A stretch of 64,000 bases of DNA from Desulfovirgula sp. GTDB taxonomy: Bacteria; Bacillota; Desulfotomaculia; Desulfotomaculales; Desulfocucumaceae. Shown here piece by piece: positions 1,233 to 55,815 of this stretch. Under the pieces are notes generated by a model. That model worked only from the letters and a program-made list of their open reading frames with translations, was not told the DNA's origin and searched no databases. The stretch covers positions 20,805 through 84,804 of the forward strand of contig DYET01000052.1 of NCBI GenBank assembly GCA_020725625.1, read 5' to 3'. Within the stretch, counting starts at the first letter, position 1. The number at the start of each line of letters is the position of its first letter. The position numbers and the translations under genes are program-made.

Positions 1233-1265
1233 CCAATTGGGTAAGGAAGGACCTTACCCAATTGG
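1233..1265. repeat. Perfect 14-bp inverted repeat CCAATTGGGTAAGG-aagga-CCTTACCCAATTGG between xsc and the ABC ATPase gene
   Basis: Read directly: left arm 1233-1246, right arm 1252-1265, 5-nt loop. It lies 10 nt after the xsc stop codon in the direction of transcription. Confidence 0.9.
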
Positions 1266-1275
1266 AGAAAATGTA

Positions 1276-3012
1276 CTACCAGTTTCTGTGATCCAGGTGG
1301 GCGTACTTGGGCAGGAAGCGGGTGGGCAGGGCCAGGGCGTCCCTCCTGAAGGGAGGGGCCAGCTGGGTACCGTCCACCACGAACTCGAGAACGCAAGGTT
1401 TTCTCCTTTTTATGGCTTCGAGCACGGCCTCGCCGACATCCTCCGCCCGGTCGATCCTCGCCCCCTCGGCGCCCATGGCCCTGGCCACCGGCACAAAGCT
1501 TTCGGGGTTGGGGATGTCGACGCCGATAAACCGGTTGTTGTAAAAATCAACCTGGTTCTTTTTCTCTGCGCACCAGCCCATGTTTCTGAACACGCAGGCG
1601 ATTACCGGCAGGTTGTGCTCCACGGCGGTGCTTACCTCGTGCAGGCTCATACCCCAGGCCCCGTCACCGATAATCGCCAGTACAGGCGCTTCCGGGCAGC
1701 CCATCTGCGCGCCCAGGGCGGCGGGGTAGGCGAAGCCGGTATTGCCGAAGGTAAGGGCTGCGATGTGCTTCCGGCTCTTGGTGAATTTAAGGTAGCTGTT
1801 GGCGGTGGAGGACACGTTACCGATGTCGGTGGCCACTATGGCGTCGGCCGGAAGAACCTTGCACATCTCCAGCAGCGCCCTCCGGGGATTGATGGGATTT
1901 CCGTCCGCCATGGCCAGGGAGACTATTTCTTCTTCCCATTTCTGTTTTTTGGCCGCCACCTCGGCCAGGCGGTTCCCGTCGGGCCTGCGGTCCGGGTCTC
2001 CGGCCTTGAGGCGCTTGAGGATCTCCACGCCGGCCTCCCTGGCGTCGCCGATGATGCCTACCTCGATGGGGTGAGTCCGGGCGATGTGCCTGGGGTTGAT
2101 GTCGATCTGGATTATTTTGGCGTCTTCCGGGAAATAGTTGATATCATACTGCGGCAGGGTGCCGAAAACCGAGAGCCTTGTTCCGACGGCCAGGATTACG
2201 TCGGCCTCCGCCAGTGAATGCATGGCCGCCTTGGATCCCATGTAGCCGATGGGACCCACCCAAAGGGGGTGGTCGGCGTAAAAGGCATCGTTGTGAAGGT
2301 AGGACACCGCTACCGGGGCGGTCAGGTGTTCGGCAATTTCTTTTACCACATCTAGGGCGTCGGCGTCAACAGCACCCCTGCCGGAAATTATTACCGGCCT
2401 TTTGGCCCCTGCCAGGATCCGGGCGGCCCTGTCCAGGTCCTCCGTGCAGCCGCAGCCGCGCCTGTCCACGCGGTACTGGTGAGGCTCAAGAATCCTGTCT
2501 TCCAGTTCGCCGTAAAAGTAGTCCCGGGGAATGTCGTAGAGCACCGGGCCGCGGTCGGCGTAGGCGATCCTGAAGGCCGTCCGCAGGCAGTCGGCGGCCC
2601 TTTTGGGGTGGGGAACCCTGACCGTTGCCTTGGTGATGGCCCTGAATACCGACACCTGGTCGCACTCCTGGAAGCCGTCCCAGCCTATGGTGGGGGTGCC
2701 GGCCGAAGGCGATATGATGACCATGGGGGTGTGGCCCATGTTGGCGGCGGCCACCGAAGTGACCATATTGGTAATCCCGGGGCCGTTTTGGCCGGTCACC
2801 ACCCCGCATTTCCCCGTCACCCGGGCGTAGGCGTCCTCCATGTGGGCCGCGCTCTGCTCGTGCCGGACCGAAATAAATTTGATTCCTGCCGCCGGGAACA
2901 GGTCCAGCATGTCCATGAAGGCGGATCCCACTATCCCCGTGACGTGGTCGACCCCTTCCGCCAGCAGGGTTTCAACGATTGCTTCACTGGGTGTCATCTT
3001 TACCTTTGCCAT
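1276..3012 (-). CDS. xsc: Sulfoacetaldehyde acetyltransferase (thiamine-diphosphate enzyme)
   Basis: 578 aa. The N-terminus [67 protein letters not shown]...[10 protein letters not shown] matches my memory of Xsc sequences and the ThDP-enzyme fold. A GDGAWGM ThDP motif lies near the C-terminus. Flanked by a class-III aminotransferase, Ald and a TauT-type ABC importer. Confidence 0.75.
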
Positions 3013-5766: not shown

Positions 5767-6492
5767 TCAGCCTCTTCTCCTGGCCAGATTAATCCGGAAG
5801 GCATACATGTCGGCCCGGAAAACACCTCTTAAGTATTCAACCGGAGTCCCCTCGGGGTCGTGGATGATGCGCTCCGCCACCATCACACAGGCCGACTCGG
5901 GGATGTCCAGGTGCAAAGCCTCCTCCCTGGTCGGCAGGGCACTGCTGATAATCTGTTCCGCCTCCCACAGCGTGATGCCCAGGCTCAACTCCAGGATGTC
6001 ATATAAAACGGCCGTGTTTAAGTCGAATTCGGCCAGCTTGAGTCCTATTTCCAGGGGGTAGTACTGCCTTTCAATGGCTATGGGAATCTCGTCTGCATAG
6101 CGCAGCCTCTCTATGACGTAAAACTCGTCGACACCGAGGGTGTCCGATATTTCCCGCGGATTTTTTTCCCTCCCCTGGTACAACAGGCGTGTGCTGGGCT
6201 TCATGCCCATTTTTTCGACAATCTCGTTGTAGGTGCTTATATTTCCCAACCATTCCTCCACCGGGCGGTGGGAAATAAAAGTACCCTTCCCGTGAATTTT
6301 TTCCAGGACGCCCTCGCGAACAAGCTCTGAAATAGCCTGCCGGACAGTCGACCTGCTGACTGAAAACCTGTCCATCAGTTCCCTCTCGCTGGGAACTCTC
6401 TGCCTGATATCACCGTTCAAAATCTCCTGTTTAAGCAATTCCTTCAACTGAACGTGGAGCGGTATCGGGCTCTTAAGATCGATTTCCCCCAC
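5767..6492 (-). CDS. GntR-family transcriptional regulator, HutC subfamily (wHTH + UTRA effector domain)
   Basis: 241 aa. N-terminal PLHVQLKELLKQEILNGDIRQRVPSERELMDRFSVSRSTVRQAISELVREGVLEKIHGKGTFI is a GntR wHTH. The C-terminal half is UTRA-like. Confidence 0.88.
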   Translation of the reverse strand: MGEIDLKSPIPLHVQLKELLKQEILNGDIRQRVPSERELMDRFSVSRSTVRQAISELVREGVLEKIHGKGTFISHRPVEEWLGNISTYNEIVEKMGMKPSTRLLYQGREKNPREISDTLGVDEFYVIERLRYADEIPIAIERQYYPLEIGLKLAEFDLNTAVLYDILELSLGITLWEAEQIISSALPTREEALHLDIPESACVMVAERIIHDPEGTPVEYLRGVFRADMYAFRINLARRRG

Positions 6493-22227: not shown

Positions 22228-22342
22228 GGTCCATGAAGGACGTGTCTTAAAGGCCCCGATTATGAATCGGCTGAAACGAGGCCACGGAGGCTCATTGCTC
22301 GCAGTGAATTGTGGGGGAATGGCCGTCGTGGTTTTGTTTTTT
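22228..22342 (+). promoter_or_regulatory. Structured 5' leader, copy 1 of the twin-hairpin motif (CC-AUGAA-GG, CC-ACGGA-GG), with terminator
   Basis: Hairpin GUCC-AUGAA-GGAC at 22229-22241. CCGAUU-aug-AAUCGG follows. GGCC-ACGGA-GGCU lies around 22282-22290. 22282-22292 pairs with 22321-22331, followed by UUUUGUUUUUU. TATAAT at 22201-22206. Confidence 0.55.
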
Positions 22343-22382
22343 GGTGCTGTTTTAATATTGAGAAGAAAGGGTGGTATTTTAC

Positions 22383-23999
22383 GTGTTTTCAAAGTGGAGC
22401 TTAAAAAAGACGCTGGCCGTGACAATGCTGCTGTTATTACCGGCCCTCGCCGCGTCCGGCTGCGGCGGGAAGCAGAAGGGTGGGGACAAGCCGGCGGAGA
22501 CAAAAGAAATTGTTTATACCGTCGCCGATCCCACGGGAGACTGGGGCTTCCCTTCCCCGTTCGCTCATTATACAAGGGGGCCGGGTTATATAAGAATGAG
22601 CTTTCTATTCGACACGCTGGTATGGAAGGACGACAAAGGGTATGTTCCGGCACTGGCCAAAAGCTGGGAGTATAACAGGGAAGAAAACGCCTACACGTTC
22701 AAGCTTCAGGAAAACGCCACCTGGCATGACGGCAAGAAGTTTACGGCGCGGGACGTCGCCTTTACCATAGAATACACCAAGGAAAACCCGTATCAGGGGG
22801 TGGACTCCGGTGTGGTCAAAAAGGCCGAGGTGTTAAGTGATCACGAGATAAAGATATCCCTTAGCAAGCCTTACGCGCCTTTTCTGGACTATATCGGCTG
22901 CACTTTGCCCATCCTGCCGGAGCACATATGGAGAGACGTGAAGTCCCCCCAGCAATACCAGCAGAAGGAGGCATTGATTGGGACGGGGCCCTTTACCCTG
23001 GCCGATTACAACAAGGAGCAGGGTACTTACCTGTACAGGGCTAACGACCGGTACTACCAGGGCAGGCCGAAAGTGGCGGAGATAAGATTTATTAAAGTGG
23101 GTGCCGAGGTGGTTGCCGCAGCATTGAGGCAAAAACAGGCCAGCGCAGCCCAGGTGCCTCCCGAGCTGAGCAGGGAACTGGAAAAGGAAGGGTTTAAAAT
23201 ACTGGTGGGCAAACACGACTGGGTGGCCAAACTGATGATCAACCACCAGAAGGAACCCTTTAATAAAAAGGAATTCCGGCAGGCTCTGGCCTATGCCGTG
23301 GACCGGAAGGCGCTTGTGGACACCTGCCTGAGAGGGCATGGGATTCCAGGCAGCCCGGGTTTTGTGCCGGCAGACAGCAAGTGGTACAACCCGGTGCTGG
23401 ACGGTAAGTATCCGCACAGTCCGGAAAAGGCCGCCGATCTAATCAAGGGGTTGGGGTACGAGAAAAAGGGCAATTATTTTGAGAAAAACGGCCAAGCGCT
23501 GGAAGTGGAGCTTCTAATCAGCGGCAAAGGGACCGGGGTGCCCGGTTCCCCGGGAGAGCGCGAGGGAGAAATGATTAAAAATCATCTGGAAAAACTGGGC
23601 ATAAAGGTCAACATGCGCGGGCTCGAGTCAAAGACTCTGGACAACAGGGTGGCTGAGTGGAAATTTGACATCGCGCTGACCGGTCACGGCGGTATGGGAG
23701 GTGATCCAGAGACACTTAACAGGATGATCCTGGGCAAAAGTTTCAACAGCGCCAGATATCAGAACAACAAAGATCTAAACGCGTTGCTGAATCAGCAGAT
23801 GGCTGCCATGGACGGCGAAAAGAGGGCCGAACTGGTGAAAAAAATACAGGAGCTTTATGCCGAAGAAATGCCCGCTCTGCCCCTGTACTCCCCCACCTGG
23901 TACTGGGCCCATGACGGCAGGGTAGACCTCTTTTACACTTTCCAGGGCGTGGCCAACGGCGTGCCCATACCGCTTAACAAAATGGCTTTCGTTAAATAG
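22383..23999 (+). CDS. ABC transporter substrate-binding lipoprotein, family 5 (peptide/nickel, OppA/DppA/NikA-like)
   Basis: Lipobox LAASGCGG, then the family-5 pattern (FKLQENATWHDGKKFTARDVAFT...). GTG 22383 follows AAAGGGTGG. The track starts 4 codons earlier. Confidence 0.88.
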   Translation: MFSKWSLKKTLAVTMLLLLPALAASGCGGKQKGGDKPAETKEIVYTVADPTGDWGFPSPFAHYTRGPGYIRMSFLFDTLVWKDDKGYVPALAKSWEYNREENAYTFKLQENATWHDGKKFTARDVAFTIEYTKENPYQGVDSGVVKKAEVLSDHEIKISLSKPYAPFLDYIGCTLPILPEHIWRDVKSPQQYQQKEALIGTGPFTLADYNKEQGTYLYRANDRYYQGRPKVAEIRFIKVGAEVVAAALRQKQASAAQVPPELSRELEKEGFKILVGKHDWVAKLMINHQKEPFNKKEFRQALAYAVDRKALVDTCLRGHGIPGSPGFVPADSKWYNPVLDGKYPHSPEKAADLIKGLGYEKKGNYFEKNGQALEVELLISGKGTGVPGSPGEREGEMIKNHLEKLGIKVNMRGLESKTLDNRVAEWKFDIALTGHGGMGGDPETLNRMILGKSFNSARYQNNKDLNALLNQQMAAMDGEKRAELVKKIQELYAEEMPALPLYSPTWYWAHDGRVDLFYTFQGVANGVPIPLNKMAFVK

Positions 24000-24036: not shown

Positions 24037-24207
24037 TTGACTTTTCTCCATATGTAAAATATAATTTAATTTAAAAGCTTGCCATGAAGGCATTCGGTCT
24101 TTGGCGTATTCGTTTGACAAACAATTATTAAAAAACCAAAGAAATGTAAAACGGCCACGGAGGTCCTCGTTTTGCCGGGAAAGGCAAAGGGAAACAGTGG
24201 CTTTTTT
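24037..24207 (+). promoter_or_regulatory. Internal promoter (TTGACT-17-TATAAT) plus structured leader, copy 2 of the twin-hairpin motif, ending in a GCCAC...GUGGC-U6 terminator-like stem
   Basis: TTGACT 24037-24042; TATAAT 24060-24065; UGCC-AUGAA-GGCA 24081-24091; UCUUUGG...CCAAAGA stem; GGCC-ACGGA-GGUC around 24155-24163; GUGGC 24197-24201 followed by TTTTTT. Confidence 0.55.
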
Positions 24208-24226
24208 ATTGGGGAGAAGTCCCGCA

Positions 24227-25198
24227 GTGGATAAAAAAAACACGGCGATTAGCTATGGTATTGCTCTGCTGGTTATACTGACCCTTAACTTCGTACTGCC
24301 CAGGCTTATGCCGGGCGACCCGCTGCAGGCCATCTACGGGGATGAGGCATTGATTGCCATGACCCCTGAACTTAAGGCGGATATTGTCAGGAGATTTTCG
24401 CTGGACAAGCCGCTGGGGGATCAGTTTGCGGCATATGCGGCGGCATTGGCCAGGGGTGACCTGGGACACTCTTATTATTTCAACGCACCGGTTATAAATA
24501 TAATCCTCGGCCGGCTTCCATGGACACTGCTTTTAGTCGGCCTGGCGGTGGTCATATCTACTGCTGCCGGGCTGATCATGGGGATAGAGGCGGGATACAG
24601 ACGCGGCAGGGTTCCGGATCACCTAGTAATCGCGGGGATGATGCTGGTCAGCGGGTTTCCGGACTTTTTCGTGGGTATGCTTTTGTTGCTGCTGTTTGGT
24701 GTCACGCTGGGGCTGGTGCCAATAGCGGGGGGCATGACCCCGTACGCATCCCACAGCGGGTTGGCGGTCCTGCTGGACGTTATGCACCACCTGGCGCTGC
24801 CCCTGGCCTCGCTGGCGCTGGTCAGGCTGGGCGGGACCTGCCTGCTGGCCCGTAACACCATGGTGATTACGCTGGGGGAGCCGTTCATAACTACGGCTAG
24901 GGCCAAGGGCTGTCCCGATTACGCTGTCAGGTACAGACATGCAGGGAGAAGCACCCTGCTGCCAGTGGTTACGGCGGCAGGGCTGCAGCTGCCGCACATG
25001 ATATCCGGAGCATTGTTTGTGGAGATGGTTTTTTCCTATCCGGGCATGGGCACGATTCTCTACAACTCCCTGTTAACCAGGGACTACCCGCTTTTACAGG
25101 GCATTTTGCTTTTCATAACCTTAACGGTGCTGGCGGTCAACCTGTTGGCCGATCTGCTTTATATGAGAATTGACCCGAGGGTGACATATGCACGTTAA
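24227..25198 (+). CDS. ABC transporter permease (DppB/NikB-like)
   Basis: LPRLMPGDPLQ N-terminal motif and a BPD_transp_1 core. GTG 24227 follows GGGGAGAAG. The upstream part of track ORF 24101.. covers the leader and is not coding. Confidence 0.85.
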   Translation: MDKKNTAISYGIALLVILTLNFVLPRLMPGDPLQAIYGDEALIAMTPELKADIVRRFSLDKPLGDQFAAYAAALARGDLGHSYYFNAPVINIILGRLPWTLLLVGLAVVISTAAGLIMGIEAGYRRGRVPDHLVIAGMMLVSGFPDFFVGMLLLLLFGVTLGLVPIAGGMTPYASHSGLAVLLDVMHHLALPLASLALVRLGGTCLLARNTMVITLGEPFITTARAKGCPDYAVRYRHAGRSTLLPVVTAAGLQLPHMISGALFVEMVFSYPGMGTILYNSLLTRDYPLLQGILLFITLTVLAVNLLADLLYMRIDPRVTYAR

Positions 25199-27702: not shown

Positions 27703-27858
27703 TTGACATGTTGCACCCCCGGCATTATATTTAAACTTGGCAGGCAGATGCGGCGGCACGGCAATATGGGTCTACCTTTTGCGGGTAGGGCGATGGAGTT
27801 CGCCTAACGCTTAAGAGAGCTGATAACTCCTACCTTTTATGGTGGGAGTTTTGTTTTT
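27703..27858 (+). promoter_or_regulatory. Promoter (TTGACA-17-TATATT) and attenuator/riboswitch-like leader with an intrinsic terminator, upstream of the cation:proton antiporter
   Basis: TTGACA 27703-27708; TATATT 27726-27731. Terminator AACUCCUACC-uuuuau-GGUGGGAGUU + UUGUUUUU at 27825-27858. The alternative pairing of 27784-27800 (GGUAGG..GGAGUU) with 27825-27834 is antiterminator-like. CUACC 27772-27776 can sequester GGUAG 27784-27788. Confidence 0.6.
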
Positions 27859-27882: not shown

Positions 27883-29007
27883 ATGAGCATTTGGCTTGAC
27901 GCGGCCTTCTGGGTCGGGTTGGCCCTGGCGGCGTCTGTAATTTCGGTGCGCCTTGGAATCTCGGTGGCCATGGTGGAAATCATGGTGGGGGTTGTAGGCG
28001 GAAATTTTCTGGGCCTGCACACCACGCCCTGGGTCGATTTTCTGGCCGGCTTCGGCAGCATACTGCTGACCTTCCTGGCTGGCGCAGAGGTGGACCCGAA
28101 GGTGCTCAGGTCCAAATTCAAGGAAAGCGTCTCCATAGGCGCCATGTCGTTCCTCTTTCCCTACCTGGCCTGTTTTGCCTACGCTTATTACGTGGCCGGC
28201 TGGGATTTGCAGGCTTCCCAAATAGCCGGGATTGCTATGTCGACCACCTCGGTGGCCATCGTGTACGCCGTAATGGTGGAAACAGGTCTTAACTCCACAG
28301 AGCTGGGGAAGATCATCCTGGCCGCCTGTTTTATCACCGACCTGGGGACAGTTCTGGCCCTTGGCATCCTATTCGCCCACTTTAATTACTGGCTCTACAT
28401 ATTCATGGCGGTCACGGCGGCAGCCTTCTTCCTGGTACCCAGGGCGGCCGGGTCGCTGGTAAAATCCCTTGGCGGCCGGGTGAGCCAGGTTGAAGTCAAG
28501 TTTGTTTATTTTATCCTCTTCCTGCTTGGGGGACTGGCGATAAAAGCCAACAGCGAAGCCGTGCTTCCCGCCTACCTGCTGGGCCTGTCCCTGGCCACTC
28601 TGCTGGCCGGGGAAAAGGATGTGCTGTACCGGATGAGGACCACCGCCTTTGCCGTGCTGACGCCGTTTTTCTTCCTGAAGGCCGGCCTGCTCATATCCCT
28701 GAAGGCGCTTTGGATGGGTCTTTTGATCATCCTTGTCTTCCTCCTGGTCAAGGTGGCGGCCAAATTCACCGGGGTCCTGCCCCTTACAGTGTTTTTCAGG
28801 TTCGGCAGGAGGAATTCCATGTACACCACCCTGCTGATGTCCACCGGCCTTACCTTCGGCAGCATTTCTGCCATGTTCGGCCTGACCCACAACATCATCA
28901 ACCAGGCCCAGTACTCGGTCCTGGTCACGGCAGTTGTTCTCAGCGGCGTTATCCCGACTCTATTCGCCCAGGCCTTTTTCAGACCGGACGGGGGATCTCA
29001 AAATTGA
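27883..29007 (+). CDS. Cation:proton antiporter (Na+/H+ exchanger family, CPA1/CPA2-type, no RCK domain)
   Basis: 374 aa and highly hydrophobic, with about 11 TMS. GGAGGTGGG RBS. Confidence 0.8.
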   Translation: MSIWLDAAFWVGLALAASVISVRLGISVAMVEIMVGVVGGNFLGLHTTPWVDFLAGFGSILLTFLAGAEVDPKVLRSKFKESVSIGAMSFLFPYLACFAYAYYVAGWDLQASQIAGIAMSTTSVAIVYAVMVETGLNSTELGKIILAACFITDLGTVLALGILFAHFNYWLYIFMAVTAAAFFLVPRAAGSLVKSLGGRVSQVEVKFVYFILFLLGGLAIKANSEAVLPAYLLGLSLATLLAGEKDVLYRMRTTAFAVLTPFFFLKAGLLISLKALWMGLLIILVFLLVKVAAKFTGVLPLTVFFRFGRRNSMYTTLLMSTGLTFGSISAMFGLTHNIINQAQYSVLVTAVVLSGVIPTLFAQAFFRPDGGSQN

Positions 29008-35167: not shown

Positions 35168-35893
35168 ATGTCGGGGCACTCCAAGTGGTCAACTATAAAA
35201 AGGAAAAAGGCCAAGGTGGACGCCGCCCGGGGTAGAATATTCACCCAGATAAGCAAGGAAATCATACTGGCGGCCAAGCAGGGGGGCGGCGATCCGGAGA
35301 AGAACCTCAGGCTAAAAAACGCCGTAGCCAAGGCCAAGGAGGCCAACATGCCCAACGACAGCATCCAGAGGTGCATTATGAAGGGAACCGGGGAAATCGG
35401 GGGCGGCAGCTACGAGGAGATTGTCTACGAGGGGTACGGCCCCGGCGGCGTGGCCGTGATGATCGAACTCATGACCGACAACCGCAACCGTACAGCCGGA
35501 GAGATCAGGCACCTGTTTTCTAAAAACGGGGGTAATCTCGGGGAAAGCGGCTGTGTTTCCTGGATGTTTGAGAAAAAGGGACTGATTGTGGTGGACAGGG
35601 AATCCGGGATCGATGAGGACGAAATTTTAATCGCCGCCCTTGATGCCGGGGCCGAGGACGTCAAGGCCGAGGAGGACGCCTTTGAGATCCTGACCGACCC
35701 GGAGAGCTTTGAGGCGGTGAGGGAAGATCTGGTGAAAAAGGGGATTGCCCCGGCCGAGGCCAGGATTTCAATGGTTCCCAAAACCACCGTAAAAATCTCG
35801 GGGACCCAGGCGGAACAGATGACCAGACTTCTGGAGGGCCTTGAGGACCTCGACGAGGTGGAGGAAGTATACACTAATTTCGAATTGGATTAG
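35168..35893 (+). CDS. yebC: YebC/PmpR-family DNA-binding transcriptional regulator
   Basis: [26 protein letters not shown]... is the canonical family start. Confidence 0.93.
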
Positions 35894-53158: not shown

Positions 53159-53335
53159 TTGATCGGGCGCTTGGAAAAAGATATAATCAAATAAGCAGCG
53201 GGACCACGGAGGTCCTGTTACCGGTAGCAGCCAAAAATGTAAGTGGAAGGAATGGCCATGAAGGTCTGGATCCGCCGTAGGCGGTTATGTCGTCTGGACT
53301 TTTGTGGCTTACTTTTTTCCGGAATTGTGAGGCTG
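53159..53335 (+). promoter_or_regulatory. Promoter (TTGATC-17-TATAAT) plus structured leader, copy 3 of the twin-hairpin motif (order inverted)
   Basis: TTGATC 53159-53164; TATAAT 53182-53187; GGGACC-ACGGA-GGUCCU 53199-53215; GGCC-AUGAA-GGUC 53254-53266; CCGCC-gua-GGCGG follows; long-range GUAAGU...GGCUUAC stem, then U6 (53303-53308). Confidence 0.5.
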
Positions 53336-54124
53336 ATGAAAATGTTCGGGCCTGCCTGCGCAAGAACCGGCATCTTCCTTTACAGGATTGACCCCAGGAT
53401 CAAGGTGGTGTCCTTGTTCGGCTTCGTGGCGGTGGTTTCTTCCCTGACCTCGGTGCCCTTTCTGCTGGTTGCGGCCCTGATTATAACCGTCCTGTCCCTT
53501 TTTTCCGGCCTGGGCCCGGGCTGCCTGCTGCGCAGGGTGGCCCTGGTGCTGCCCTTTGCAGGGGTCATGCTGGCCGTTATTCCCTTCGCGGTTCCGGGCC
53601 AGGCGCTTTTTGGCATCAAGCTGGGGCCTCTCGCCCTGGCTGCCACGGAACAAGGGTTGGACCGGGCCGCGGTTCTTTCCCTGAGGATACTGACAGCCGT
53701 TCTGGCGGTAAACGCCCTTACCGCCACCACGCCTTTTTCGGAATTGATGAGGGCGTTCAGGGAGCTGAAAATCCCGGGGGTTTTCGTGCAGGTGCTGGAA
53801 TTTACGGTCAGGTACTTGTTTGTCCTGGCCGGGGAAGTTGACCGGATGAGGCTGGCCCGCAGGTCGAGGTGTTTTGAGTCCGGCGGCACCCTCCTGAACA
53901 GGGCCGTTTTCAGGACGCTGGGGCAGATGGTGGGAGTGCTGTTTATCAGGTCATGGGACAGGGGAGAAAGGATATACTGTGCCATGCTGTCCAGGGGTTA
54001 TTCAGCGGAGGCTGGCGCAGGGGGCCGGGCGCGCGGAATCAGGTGGGGGGACCTTTGCTGGGGGGTAGCCATCCTGGCTGCAGCGGTCGGCTTGAGGATT
54101 TTTGAAAGCGGGGCCGCCCGGTAA
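53336..54124 (+). CDS. cbiQ: Energy-coupling-factor / cobalt-type transporter transmembrane component (CbiQ/EcfT family)
   Basis: LYRIDPRIKVV start region and ARRSR coupling motif (LARRSRCF). The start is uncertain: ATG 53336/53342, or the longer in-frame form from ATG 53258. Confidence 0.8.
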   Translation: MKMFGPACARTGIFLYRIDPRIKVVSLFGFVAVVSSLTSVPFLLVAALIITVLSLFSGLGPGCLLRRVALVLPFAGVMLAVIPFAVPGQALFGIKLGPLALAATEQGLDRAAVLSLRILTAVLAVNALTATTPFSELMRAFRELKIPGVFVQVLEFTVRYLFVLAGEVDRMRLARRSRCFESGGTLLNRAVFRTLGQMVGVLFIRSWDRGERIYCAMLSRGYSAEAGAGGRARGIRWGDLCWGVAILAAAVGLRIFESGAAR

Positions 54125-54225
54125 CCCTGCAGATGTTAGCAATTGGGGCGCTCCGTGGACTGTGTGATCAAAATTGGAGGCCGCAGGCTTCTTCAGCCTG
54201 GGCCGAACAGGTCGGGGGAATAATA

Positions 54226-55056
54226 GTGGCCATTATTGAAGTCGATAACGTTTATTATACATATAAAGACGGCACCGAGGCCCTGAGGGGCCTCTCACTT
54301 TGCATCGAGGCGGGGGAGAAGGTGGCCCTCCTGGGACCGAACGGGGCCGGAAAATCCACCCTTCTCCTGCATTTCAACGGCATCAACCTGCCCCGCAGGG
54401 GAAGGGTGACCGTATTGGGACGGGAAGTCAACAGCAAATCAGAAAAGTGGGTGCGGTCGAGGGTGGGCCTCGTCTTCCAGGACCCCGACGACCAGGTTTT
54501 TTCGTCCACGGTCTGGGAGGATGTGGCCTTCGGTCCCCAGAACATGGGCCTGGACCGCCGGGAAATCGAGAGGAGGGTGGGGGACGCCCTTGAGGCGGTG
54601 GGGATGCAGGATTACCGCCAGAGGCCGCCCTACCACCTTAGCTACGGCCAGAAAAAAAGGGTGGCCATCGCCGGCATCCTGGCCATGCTTCCAGAGATTA
54701 TCGTGCTGGACGAGCCCATGGCCTTTCTCGATCCCAGGGGCAAGGACACTCTGGCGGAGATACTCAACCGGTTACACACCGGGGGTCGGACCATTGTCAT
54801 CGCCACCCACGACGTGGACTTCGCTGCAGAATGGGCCGACCGGGTGATTATCGTCAAGGATGGGAAAACCCTGGCCCAGGGCGGACGGGAGCTGCTGCAG
54901 GACCCCGGGCTGATGGAGGAGGCCCAACTGAGGTTTCCGGTGGTCAGCAAGGTATTTTCCTGTGTGCCCGAACTTAATGTTAAGCCTCTGCCCTTGACCG
55001 TCGACCAGGCGGTGGATATAATTAGAAAACTGATAAACAACGGAAAGCCGGAATAA
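54226..55056 (+). CDS. cbiO: Cobalt/nickel-type ECF transporter ATP-binding protein (CbiO family)
   Basis: GPNGAGKST, LSYGQKKRVAIAG and VLDEP motifs. GTG 54226 follows GGGGGAA. The upstream part of the track ORF is not coding. Confidence 0.88.
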   Translation: MAIIEVDNVYYTYKDGTEALRGLSLCIEAGEKVALLGPNGAGKSTLLLHFNGINLPRRGRVTVLGREVNSKSEKWVRSRVGLVFQDPDDQVFSSTVWEDVAFGPQNMGLDRREIERRVGDALEAVGMQDYRQRPPYHLSYGQKKRVAIAGILAMLPEIIVLDEPMAFLDPRGKDTLAEILNRLHTGGRTIVIATHDVDFAAEWADRVIIVKDGKTLAQGGRELLQDPGLMEEAQLRFPVVSKVFSCVPELNVKPLPLTVDQAVDIIRKLINNGKPE

Positions 55057-55062
55057 GAAGGG

Positions 55063-55815
55063 ATGTTTGAGATTATGGACAATGTCTCTCCCGAAGTGGT
55101 AAGAGGTTACTCGGTCTGGATTGAACCCGAAAGCCTGCACTACCACGCGGGAAGTGTGGTGCGGGCCAGGGCCCTTTGGGGGTGCATGATGAGGCGGGAT
55201 GGCGAGGCTGACACCGGGGGTTGGAACGCCTATGCCCTGGATCCCGGGGGGGCCGTGCTGGAGGCGGACATAGCCCGGGGTGAGGGAAACCTTTACAAAG
55301 TGGCCTTTTTTTCCGGCGGGGAGGGATTGTACAACCTCGTACTGGAGAACAAGGCCGGGATATACTGCAGGCTTCCCGGCGGAGAGTGGACCCGGGGACC
55401 CCGGGACAGCTGTCCCGGTGCGGTTGAATCGGCCAGGTTTTTCCAGAGGGCCAGGATCCCGGTTCCGGTGGGGCACCACATCCGGGGCAGGCTTGAGAGC
55501 GTAAGCGCGTTCGGCCTGGATGTATTCAGCCGGGAGTTCGGGGAGTACCGCCGGGGGGACAGCATAGTGATAAAGGTTTTTTACAATGGCCGGCCCCTTC
55601 CCGGCGCGGATCTGAAGGCTGCCTGCCATCTTTTTTCCGGTACGGAATACCCCTGGCGGGGTAGAACTAGCAAAGACGGGGAGGTTTCCTTCACCTTCCC
55701 TGAGAGGGGGCACTGGATGTTCACCTGTACCTTGGACGACGGGCAGGACGGCGGGGGGGCGGGATACGGCAGAACCGTGTATACCTCCAACTTTGTGGTG
55801 GCCGGGGTCAGGTAG
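55063..55815 (+). CDS. DUF4198-domain protein (nickel/cobalt-uptake-associated, CbiK/NikK-like) lacking a signal peptide
   Basis: GDSIVIKVFYNGRPLPGADL ... SKDGEVSFTFPERGHWMF matches the DUF4198 pattern as I remember it. The ORF starts 7 nt after the cbiO stop, so there is no room for a leader peptide. Confidence 0.65.
   Translation: MFEIMDNVSPEVVRGYSVWIEPESLHYHAGSVVRARALWGCMMRRDGEADTGGWNAYALDPGGAVLEADIARGEGNLYKVAFFSGGEGLYNLVLENKAGIYCRLPGGEWTRGPRDSCPGAVESARFFQRARIPVPVGHHIRGRLESVSAFGLDVFSREFGEYRRGDSIVIKVFYNGRPLPGADLKAACHLFSGTEYPWRGRTSKDGEVSFTFPERGHWMFTCTLDDGQDGGGAGYGRTVYTSNFVVAGVR

Follow-up and report, generated by a model that had tools for sequence, protein, structure and literature searches.

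The DNA analysed here is a 64,000-nucleotide stretch of contig DYET01000052.1 (assembly GCA_020725625.1) from Desulfovirgula sp., hereafter the window, whose plus strand carries the operon cbiQ-cbiO-DUF4198. The leader of this operon holds two small hairpins, H1 and H2, and is the third copy of an element of which copies 1 and 2, noticed in the initial annotation of this DNA, do exist elsewhere in the window. Copy 3 is considered a candidate transcription attenuator. Its parts and the genes behind it are as follows.

53159-53187, plus strand: sigma-70-type promoter (-35 TTGATC 53159-53164, spacer 17 nt, -10 TATAAT 53182-53187)
53197-53219, plus strand: hairpin H1, AGCGGGACC-ACGGA-GGUCCUGUU, 9 bp, computed -13.1 kcal/mol, loop 53206-53210
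53220-53253, plus strand: linker, 34 nt
53254-53266, plus strand: hairpin H2, GGCC-AUGAA-GGUC, 4 bp, computed -3.1 kcal/mol, loop 53258-53262
53254-53309, plus strand: terminator hairpin, 5' strand 53254-53271, 3' strand 53292-53309, computed -31.1 kcal/mol
53272-53284, plus strand: apical hairpin of the terminator, CCGCC (53272-53276)-GUA-GGCGG (53280-53284)
53313-53318, plus strand: U6 tract, end of the predicted intrinsic terminator, with UAC directly 5' of it
53329-53344, plus strand: Shine-Dalgarno GAGG (53329-53332) and cbiQ start codons ATG 53336 and ATG 53342
53342-54124, plus strand: cbiQ, T component of an energy-coupling factor (ECF) transporter (Pfam CbiQ 6e-39), first gene after copy 3
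54133-55056, plus strand: cbiO (Pfam ABC_tran 2.5e-33)
55063-55815, plus strand: DUF4198 gene (Pfam DUF4198 2.4e-15)

Anatomy of the cbiQ leader

The promoter matches the consensus at 10 of 12 positions, with 0.3 expected in shuffles, and its TTG and TATAAT are invariant across 10 cbiQ leaders (alignment A1), so the promoter read from the window alone is borne out by orthologous leaders. Transcription would start at about 53194-53195, approximately 7 nt past TATAAT, so that H1 would be a free-standing hairpin at the transcript's 5' end. A spacer motif, GGAAAAAGR, is largely kept in A1; the spacer GGAAAAAGRTATAAT (window 53165-53187, A1 columns 19-33) is near-invariant among cbiQ leaders, a conservation exceeding the need of a -10 box, and extra DNA-level control may therefore exist. 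The ACGGA hairpin, annotated at first as GGGACC-ACGGA-GGUCCU, was confirmed and extends to 9 bp, and the other annotated elements (GGCC-AUGAA-GGUC at 53254-53266, CCGCC-GUA-GGCGG and U6) are likewise present in the sequence.

The 156-nt leader has a predicted fold of -61.1 kcal/mol (z = -4.05). In the minimum-energy fold, 53254-53271 (GGCCAUGAAGGUCUGGAU) pairs with 53292-53309 (GUCUGGACUUUUGUGGCU), consuming the AUGAA hairpin. The initial annotation had drawn a terminator-like three-way junction, in which a long-range stem between GUAAGU and GGCUUAC enclosed an intact AUGAA hairpin. The terminator-like element itself held up, but the junction did not, as the terminator hairpin consumes the AUGAA hairpin rather than enclosing it; the enclosing stem is neither the best fold nor conserved, and GGCUUAC lies at 53306-53312, ten bases away from the 53296-53302 assigned to it. 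A stable GC-containing hairpin followed by a U-tract thus precedes the start codon at copy 3, as it does in the other leaders examined, and an alternative structure excludes it: both arms of H2 are part of the terminator 5' strand, and H2 and the terminator are mutually exclusive in the computed folds. Because both its arms also belong to that strand, H2 is modelled as an antiterminator element.

The AUG of the AUGAA loop (53258) raised the possibility that the hairpin hides an alternative start of a longer CbiQ and controls its translation; the other option proposed was a true start at 53336/53342 behind a pure leader. The loop AUG is indeed in frame with cbiQ, in a frame open from 53243, and is preceded by GGAAGGAA, yet this open in-frame state occurs only in this genome. 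In all seven orthologs with a called start the triplet is unusable, being out of frame in L001, L002, L004, L006, L008 and L135, whereas in L009 the loop is AAGGA (triplet AAG) and a stop intervenes before the start. Homologs measure 259-270 aa, and the conserved CbiQ N-terminus M-x-M-P-A-C-A-G...L-Y-R-I/M-D-P aligns with MKMFGPACARTGIFLYRIDP, that is, at 53336/53342. On account of these lengths and this alignment, sequence comparison places the cbiQ start at 53342 or 53336 and not at 53258; the Shine-Dalgarno spacing of 9 nt favours 53342, which also fits the 260-aa protein on record. In addition, AUG 53258 lies 5' of the terminator U-tract, and the same loop recurs in H1, as it does in leaders that belong to unrelated genes. 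Translational control through an internal start is given next to no chance, and the region is regarded as pure leader.

Recurrence in other genomes and operons

Further cbiQ leaders were fetched via the protein identity of close CbiQ homologs and were hence not selected for the RNA. The whole layout is common to 10 distinct leaders (the window, L001, L002, L004, L006, L008, L009, L135, L137 and L138). The nine outside the window come from Peptococcaceae, Desulfocucumaceae-type and other Bacillota metagenome-assembled genomes (MAGs), and in each of these nine the promoter and H1 are retained together with a variable linker, H2 and its complement, the small CCGC/GCGG hairpin and a U-rich tract, AUUAUUAUUUU-type tracts standing at the place of the copy 3 U6. 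The complement of H2 is retained but the GUAAGU segment is not. Both hairpins are thus conserved 5' of orthologous cbiQ genes, in leaders chosen by protein alone. Across the 10 leaders (alignment A3), 85.8% of cells are paired in the terminator and its apical hairpin, versus 28-46% with slid partners.

The motif also precedes other genes, at the following loci.

L010, Desulfolucanica-like contig: 5' of cbiM-PDGLE
L012, plus strand, Desulfofarcimen acetoxidans: 5' of an SBP5 operon
L012, minus strand, Desulfofarcimen acetoxidans: 5' of a divergent CbiA/CooC-like-TrmO_N-FmdE operon
L139, Peptococcaceae BICA1-7: 5' of an SBP5 gene
L099, MAG, gene-blind DNA-pattern scan: 5' of FmdE-DUF4198-CbiM-CbiQ
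L123, MAG, gene-blind DNA-pattern scan: 5' of DUF3842, then CbiM-CbiQ-CbiO

The DNA-pattern scan of genome contigs (ACCTTCATGGYCN{37,67}CCTYCNTGR) returned at least 120 loci, nearly all of which were fortuitous matches within coding DNA of unrelated phyla; once filters for stems, terminator and U-run had been applied, L099 and L123 alone remained among the matches listed, and given this yield the taxonomic range is under-sampled. A metagenome scan with the CbiQ protein gave 4 loci. In Pelotomaculum schinkii (L011 5652-6001) and Thermacetogenium (L013 5157-5513), an H2 with an ACGAA loop and the terminator are kept before an SBP5/TrmO operon, and the first hairpin has diverged to an apex of the G-UUGAA-G type or A-AUGAA-U; judged by sequence, these leaders may form a diverged sub-type.

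Within the window, copies 1 and 2 flank the SBP_bac_5 gene of an ATP-binding cassette (ABC) transporter operon.

22229-22342, plus strand: copy 1, 5' of the SBP_bac_5 gene (22371-23999), covariance model score 35.6 bits
22229-22241, plus strand: copy 1 H1, GUCC-AUGAA-GGAC
22280-22292, plus strand: copy 1 H2, GGCC-ACGGA-GGCU
22282-22331, plus strand: copy 1 terminator (-25.3 kcal/mol), followed by a U-tract at 22332-22342
24037-24210, plus strand: copy 2, between the SBP gene and a permease gene (24227-25198), covariance model score 54.9 bits
24037-24065, plus strand: copy 2's own promoter, TTGACT-17-TATAAT
24080-24092, plus strand: copy 2 H1, UGCC-AUGAA-GGCA
24153-24165, plus strand: copy 2 H2, GGCC-ACGGA-GGUC
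24154-24201, plus strand: copy 2 terminator (-20.2 kcal/mol), followed by a U-tract at 24202-24210

The 9-mer cores lie at 22231/22282 in copy 1 and at 24082/24155 in copy 2, and the ortholog L139 carries the same leader as copy 1. By Pfam, the genes 3' of these copies are SBP_bac_5, two BPD_transp_1 permeases and a fused double ATPase, copy 2 preceding the permeases of the same ABC transporter. In the minimum-energy folds of copies 1 and 2 the first hairpin is retained, and the 5' arm and loop of the second lie in a long stem followed by a U-run. In all three copies, therefore, the 5' hairpin is free and the 3' hairpin competes with the terminator, regardless of the loop variant each carries.

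Pairs of C-ANGRA-G hairpins (at least 4 bp each, 25-95 nt apart) number three in the window against a mean of 0.01, and none of 300 dinucleotide shuffles reached three. A covariance model built from alignment A2 found no fourth copy in the window. Single C-ANGRA-G hairpins of at least 4 bp are also over-represented window-wide, with 15 observed versus 4.3 expected, and 300 shuffles never exceeded 10; six of the 15 sit in the three leaders, and the others include 35332-35344 and 6195-6209.

The earlier argument that recurrence of the motif at unlinked Ni/Co-type loci speaks for a functional leader rather than a local duplication gains from nine further cbiQ leaders, from the other operons and from the compensatory changes in H1 described below. 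The motif appears to mark a putative Ni/Co-uptake regulon in anaerobic Bacillota.

Two kinds of observation were made beside these leaders. Reduced intra-operon versions, consisting of one C-AUGAA-G hairpin and a terminator, lie in the gap between DUF3842 and cbiM at L123 5521-5597 (minus strand, 23.5 bits) and between the PDGLE gene and cbiQ at L010 3845-3930 (plus strand, 21.7 bits). The SBP5 ABC transporters (L011, L012, L013, L014 and L139) are flanked across genera by FmdE-domain proteins, TrmO_N proteins, a CbiA/CooC-like ATPase and CobW, and some of the flanking FmdE-domain proteins bear a DksA/TraR zinc finger or a signal peptide. This neighbourhood looks like a recurrent metal-handling gene set.

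One loop class on two hairpins

The initial annotation had described two hairpin types, occurring in inverted order at copy 3. Comparison of 18 instances (36 loops) instead revealed one interchangeable class, C-[A-N-G-R-A]-G, and the difference in order is merely a matter of which permitted variant sits where. A, G and A occupy positions 1, 3 and 5 in 36 of 36 loops; any of U, C, A or G occurs at position 2, whereas position 4 holds a purine, A in 30 of 36. AUGAA is the commonest loop (24 of 36). The letters ANGRA were a search criterion for the pattern-found instances but not for the protein-fetched leaders, among which the H1 loops are ACGGA, AAGAA, ACGAA, AUGAA and AGGAA and the H2 loops AUGAA, AUGGA and AAGGA. 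The linker between the hairpins is not conserved in sequence and measures 29-63 nt among instances, from stem end to stem start.

The stems behave differently from the loops. In alignment A2 (17 instances), 87.7% of H1 cells are paired and two-sided changes occur at 6 of 7 pairs, whereas in H2 98.5% of cells are paired, CC/GG is invariant and only one-sided G-U/A-U/G-C changes are seen. Taken jointly, H1 and H2 have 91.8% of their cells paired versus 22-50% with slid partners, and none of 500 shuffles reached the observed covariation score. No complementarity or covariation was detected between position 2 of the H1 loop and that of the H2 loop, as loop-loop kissing would require. The loop with its 3' arm (ANGRAGGU) was also considered as a Shine-Dalgarno mimic and set aside, as the GG lies within the stem.

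Every motif instance is on the sense strand of its downstream genes, including the minus-strand copy of L012. Since ANGRA is asymmetric and non-palindromic, the arms co-vary and all instances share this orientation, the sequence data point to RNA rather than DNA as the recognised molecule. The hairpins might otherwise be DNA palindromes serving as operators for a NikR-type DNA-binding metal regulator just 3' of the promoter. Nickel uptake genes are commonly under NikR, H1 at about +3 to +25 occupies a position suited to a repressor, and the conserved promoter spacer of the cbiQ leaders leaves room for some additional DNA-level control. Operators, however, would be expected to keep a half-site sequence, and none is kept between the co-varying arms; the sole conserved letters are those of the asymmetric loop, always on the transcribed sense strand, and H2 is situated 60-100 nt 3' of the promoter and is tied to the terminator. 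An operator function for the hairpins is accordingly rated as very improbable.

A putative factor-dependent antiterminator

Computed energies range from -0.8 to -5.8 kcal/mol for H2 alone and from -19 to -39 kcal/mol for the terminator (16 of 17 instances folded; at L012_SBP the automatic cut missed the terminator, which is visible in the sequence). H2 is far weaker than the terminator and so cannot win unaided. A stable H1 and a weak H2 with the same apex, combined with a strong terminator built on H2, fit a factor-dependent antiterminator. Copy 3 is therefore read, with a probability of roughly 0.55, as a transcription attenuator in the leader of cbiQ-cbiO-DUF4198, in which an effector gripping both loops would stabilise H2 and permit read-through.

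For this pathway, H1 would form at once after transcription has started downstream of TATAAT and would stay formed, followed by H2, whose 4 bp are open to competition, as both arms are complementary to a downstream segment. Without the effector, the long terminator hairpin and U-tract would stop polymerase before cbiQ, making OFF the default state. Both hairpins present the same apex, the C-G closing pair with its A-N-G-R-A pentaloop, and an effector reading the two apexes together would keep H2 closed and block the terminator, so that polymerase enters cbiQ. Considering that binding would mean ON and that the genes import Ni/Co, the transported ion is unlikely to be the direct ligand, and a dimeric or two-site RNA-binding protein reporting Ni/Co need is favoured over a small ligand; this remains speculative, and the odds on such a protein are put at about even.

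The closest known parallel is provided by the ANTAR targets (EutV, NasR, AmiR), dual hairpins of which the second overlaps the terminator and both loops are bound by a protein dimer, with termination as the default and read-through upon binding (PMC3369931). The cbiQ leader resembles them in having two small stem-loops that share their conserved loop letters, in the overlap of the second hairpin with an intrinsic terminator and, as proposed here, in default termination relieved by two-loop binding; several operons per genome can likewise form an ANTAR regulon (PMC3369931). The differences are substantial. ANTAR loops are hexaloops with A1 and G4 (PMC3369931), whereas 36 of 36 loops here are A-N-G-R-A pentaloops closed by C-G, and a 6-nt loop with A1 and G4 cannot be obtained in any register of the 36. 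The linkers of eut leaders measure 5-12 nt, as against 29-63 nt here, and lengthening the linker to 14 nt abolished induction (PMC3369931). ANTAR proteins govern genes of nitrogen and ethanolamine metabolism, while the motif is linked to Ni/Co uptake.

Several points weigh against the attenuator proposed here. Among the 50 open reading frames of the window scanned with Pfam, none encodes an ANTAR, CAT or other known antiterminator domain. The U-tracts are interrupted in several orthologs (AUUAUUAUUUU), which makes termination efficiency uncertain. Among known antiterminators, RNA binding upon metal scarcity would be out of the ordinary. Since H2 hardly varies in sequence, two-sided covariation is all but absent from H2 and the terminator; their support, as far as sequence can tell, is pairing potential and re-invention in different operons, and the best support for the terminator is that each of six operon types has a different one, built on one and the same H2 sequence. 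Finally, two tiny hairpins with variable spacing are, by analogy, exactly the appearance of guanidine-II, which leaves room for a small ligand.

Such a ligand would make the leader a true riboswitch: with the two like loops bridged by a small molecule or ion, H1 would dock on H2, H2 would be stabilised, and termination would be averted without protein. Guanidine-II (mini-ykkC, RF01068) is an ON switch of two near-identical short hairpins with the same C-G-closed conserved loop and a variable, non-conserved linker, and the ACGGA loops of the window resemble its ACGR plus one A. Small RNAs can sense small ions, and no regulator gene is linked to the motif at any locus examined. In guanidine-II, however, the loop is an ACGR tetraloop whose invariant C and G form pairs from one loop to the other, and the genes controlled are those of guanidine efflux and carboxylases. 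The motif has a pentaloop with a free position 2, no H1/H2 co-variation and metal-uptake genes, so symmetric C-G/G-C loop-loop pairs of that type cannot form generally, and the Rfam mini-ykkC covariance model gave no match even at E values up to 10 (three window leaders and the L010 cbiM leader). Moreover, with bound equal to ON, Ni/Co inducing their own import would be harmful positive feedback, and the ligand would consequently have to differ from the transported metal. A ligand-only switch is considered rather unlikely and comes second to the protein reading.

A third reading dispenses with regulation altogether. H1 would be a 5' stabiliser, and the long hairpin would act either as a terminator, leaky or constitutive, or as a site of RNase processing, the likeness of the loops having no sensing role. 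It draws on H1 standing right at the start of the inferred transcript, and 5'-terminal hairpins do protect mRNA in Firmicutes. This reading nevertheless leaves unexplained why A1, G3, A5 and the C-G pair are invariant in both hairpins over six operon types although the stems themselves vary freely, why H2 is the base of the terminator in every case, and why the motif is confined to one functional gene group. An unregulated leader is thus judged improbable.

Known regulatory RNAs, significance and neighbouring features

Other RNA regulators were compared with the factor-dependent attenuator favoured here. In Rfam 15 the whole window gave no match at the leaders at the gathering threshold, and the three window leaders and the L010 cbiM leader gave only chance-level hits at E values up to 10 (Chloroflexus-1 at 15 bits, microRNAs, snoRNAs). 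The models of the NiCo riboswitch, with its four-way junction, and of the cobalamin riboswitch, with its B12 box and core, were without a match, in the window at the gathering threshold and in the leaders by E-value. The NiCo (czcD) and cobalamin riboswitches are likewise RNA-level regulators of cobalt and nickel traffic, and cobalamin riboswitches often precede cbiMNQO; they differ in being large multi-helix aptamers, the former controlling exporters and turning ON with metal, the latter switching OFF. A NiCo-AnGGAG motif provisionally attributed to Weinberg 2017 was not confirmed, had no Rfam match and was dropped; it is probably a NiCo variant.

CsrA/RsmA sites share an A-N-G-G-A core in a hairpin loop, and CsrA is a protein dimer bridging two sites tens of nucleotides apart. 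Their GGA is nearly invariant, whereas position 4 of the present loops is A (GAA) in 30 of 36, and CsrA usually acts on the Shine-Dalgarno sequence, while the motif here sits on a terminator.

To our knowledge, bacterial nickel uptake has been explained almost entirely by DNA-binding NikR-type regulators, and the only RNA control known to us for Ni/Co transporters is the cobalamin riboswitch of cobalt importers and the NiCo riboswitch of exporters. No paper in the literature searched links cbiMNQO or nikMNQO to an attenuator or antiterminator, and a 2025 review of RNA-binding antiterminators lists CAT/RAT, ANTAR and HutP types only. The motif rather probably represents an undescribed regulatory RNA class and the first RNA-level switch for Ni (or Ni/Co) import, a C-[ANGRA]-G pair read by a new metal-status-sensing antiterminator family or by a small ligand. 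Its regulon would comprise ECF Nik/Cbi transporters, the SBP5 ABC transporter and FmdE-like, TrmO-like, CooC-like and DUF3842 proteins in Desulfotomaculia and their thermophilic or anaerobic relatives among the Bacillota. A conserved importer attenuator in these anaerobes, rich in carbon monoxide dehydrogenase and hydrogenase, would supply a missing regulator, and a hunt for the effector would follow, whether this is a novel family of RNA-binding proteins or a novel ligand for riboswitches. The motif would also tie DUF3842, DUF4198, secreted FmdE-like and TrmO-like proteins to metal homeostasis, and, being small and well defined, it is usable to predict Ni/Co regulons in MAGs.

The operon behind copy 3 (53342-55815) has no adjoining cbiM/cbiN (S component); the related loci L010, L099 and L123 do have a cbiM gene, with the motif ahead of it. 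The DUF4198 protein of the window (55063-55815) is without an obvious signal peptide, and in two orthologous loci DUF4198 forms a C-terminal extension of the CbiO ATPase as a fusion protein (L008 4846-6345 and L009 4898-6433, 499-511 aa). Based on these two observations, DUF4198 looks, from sequence, like a cytoplasmic ATPase-attached domain rather than a periplasmic NikK-type component, and it may be a metal-sensing regulatory domain.

Two further structured elements were noted in the window. At 1233-1265 (plus strand), between the minus-strand genes 413-1177 and 1276-3012, lies a perfect 14-bp hairpin with an AAGGA loop, which is probably an ordinary terminator. The only Rfam match of the window at the gathering threshold is a fluoride riboswitch (RF01734) at 27780-27839 on the plus strand (44.3 bits, E 5e-9), directly after the ABC transporter operon; instead of the usual crcB or eriC-F partner, a Na_H_Exchanger-family gene (27883-29007) follows it 44 nt downstream.

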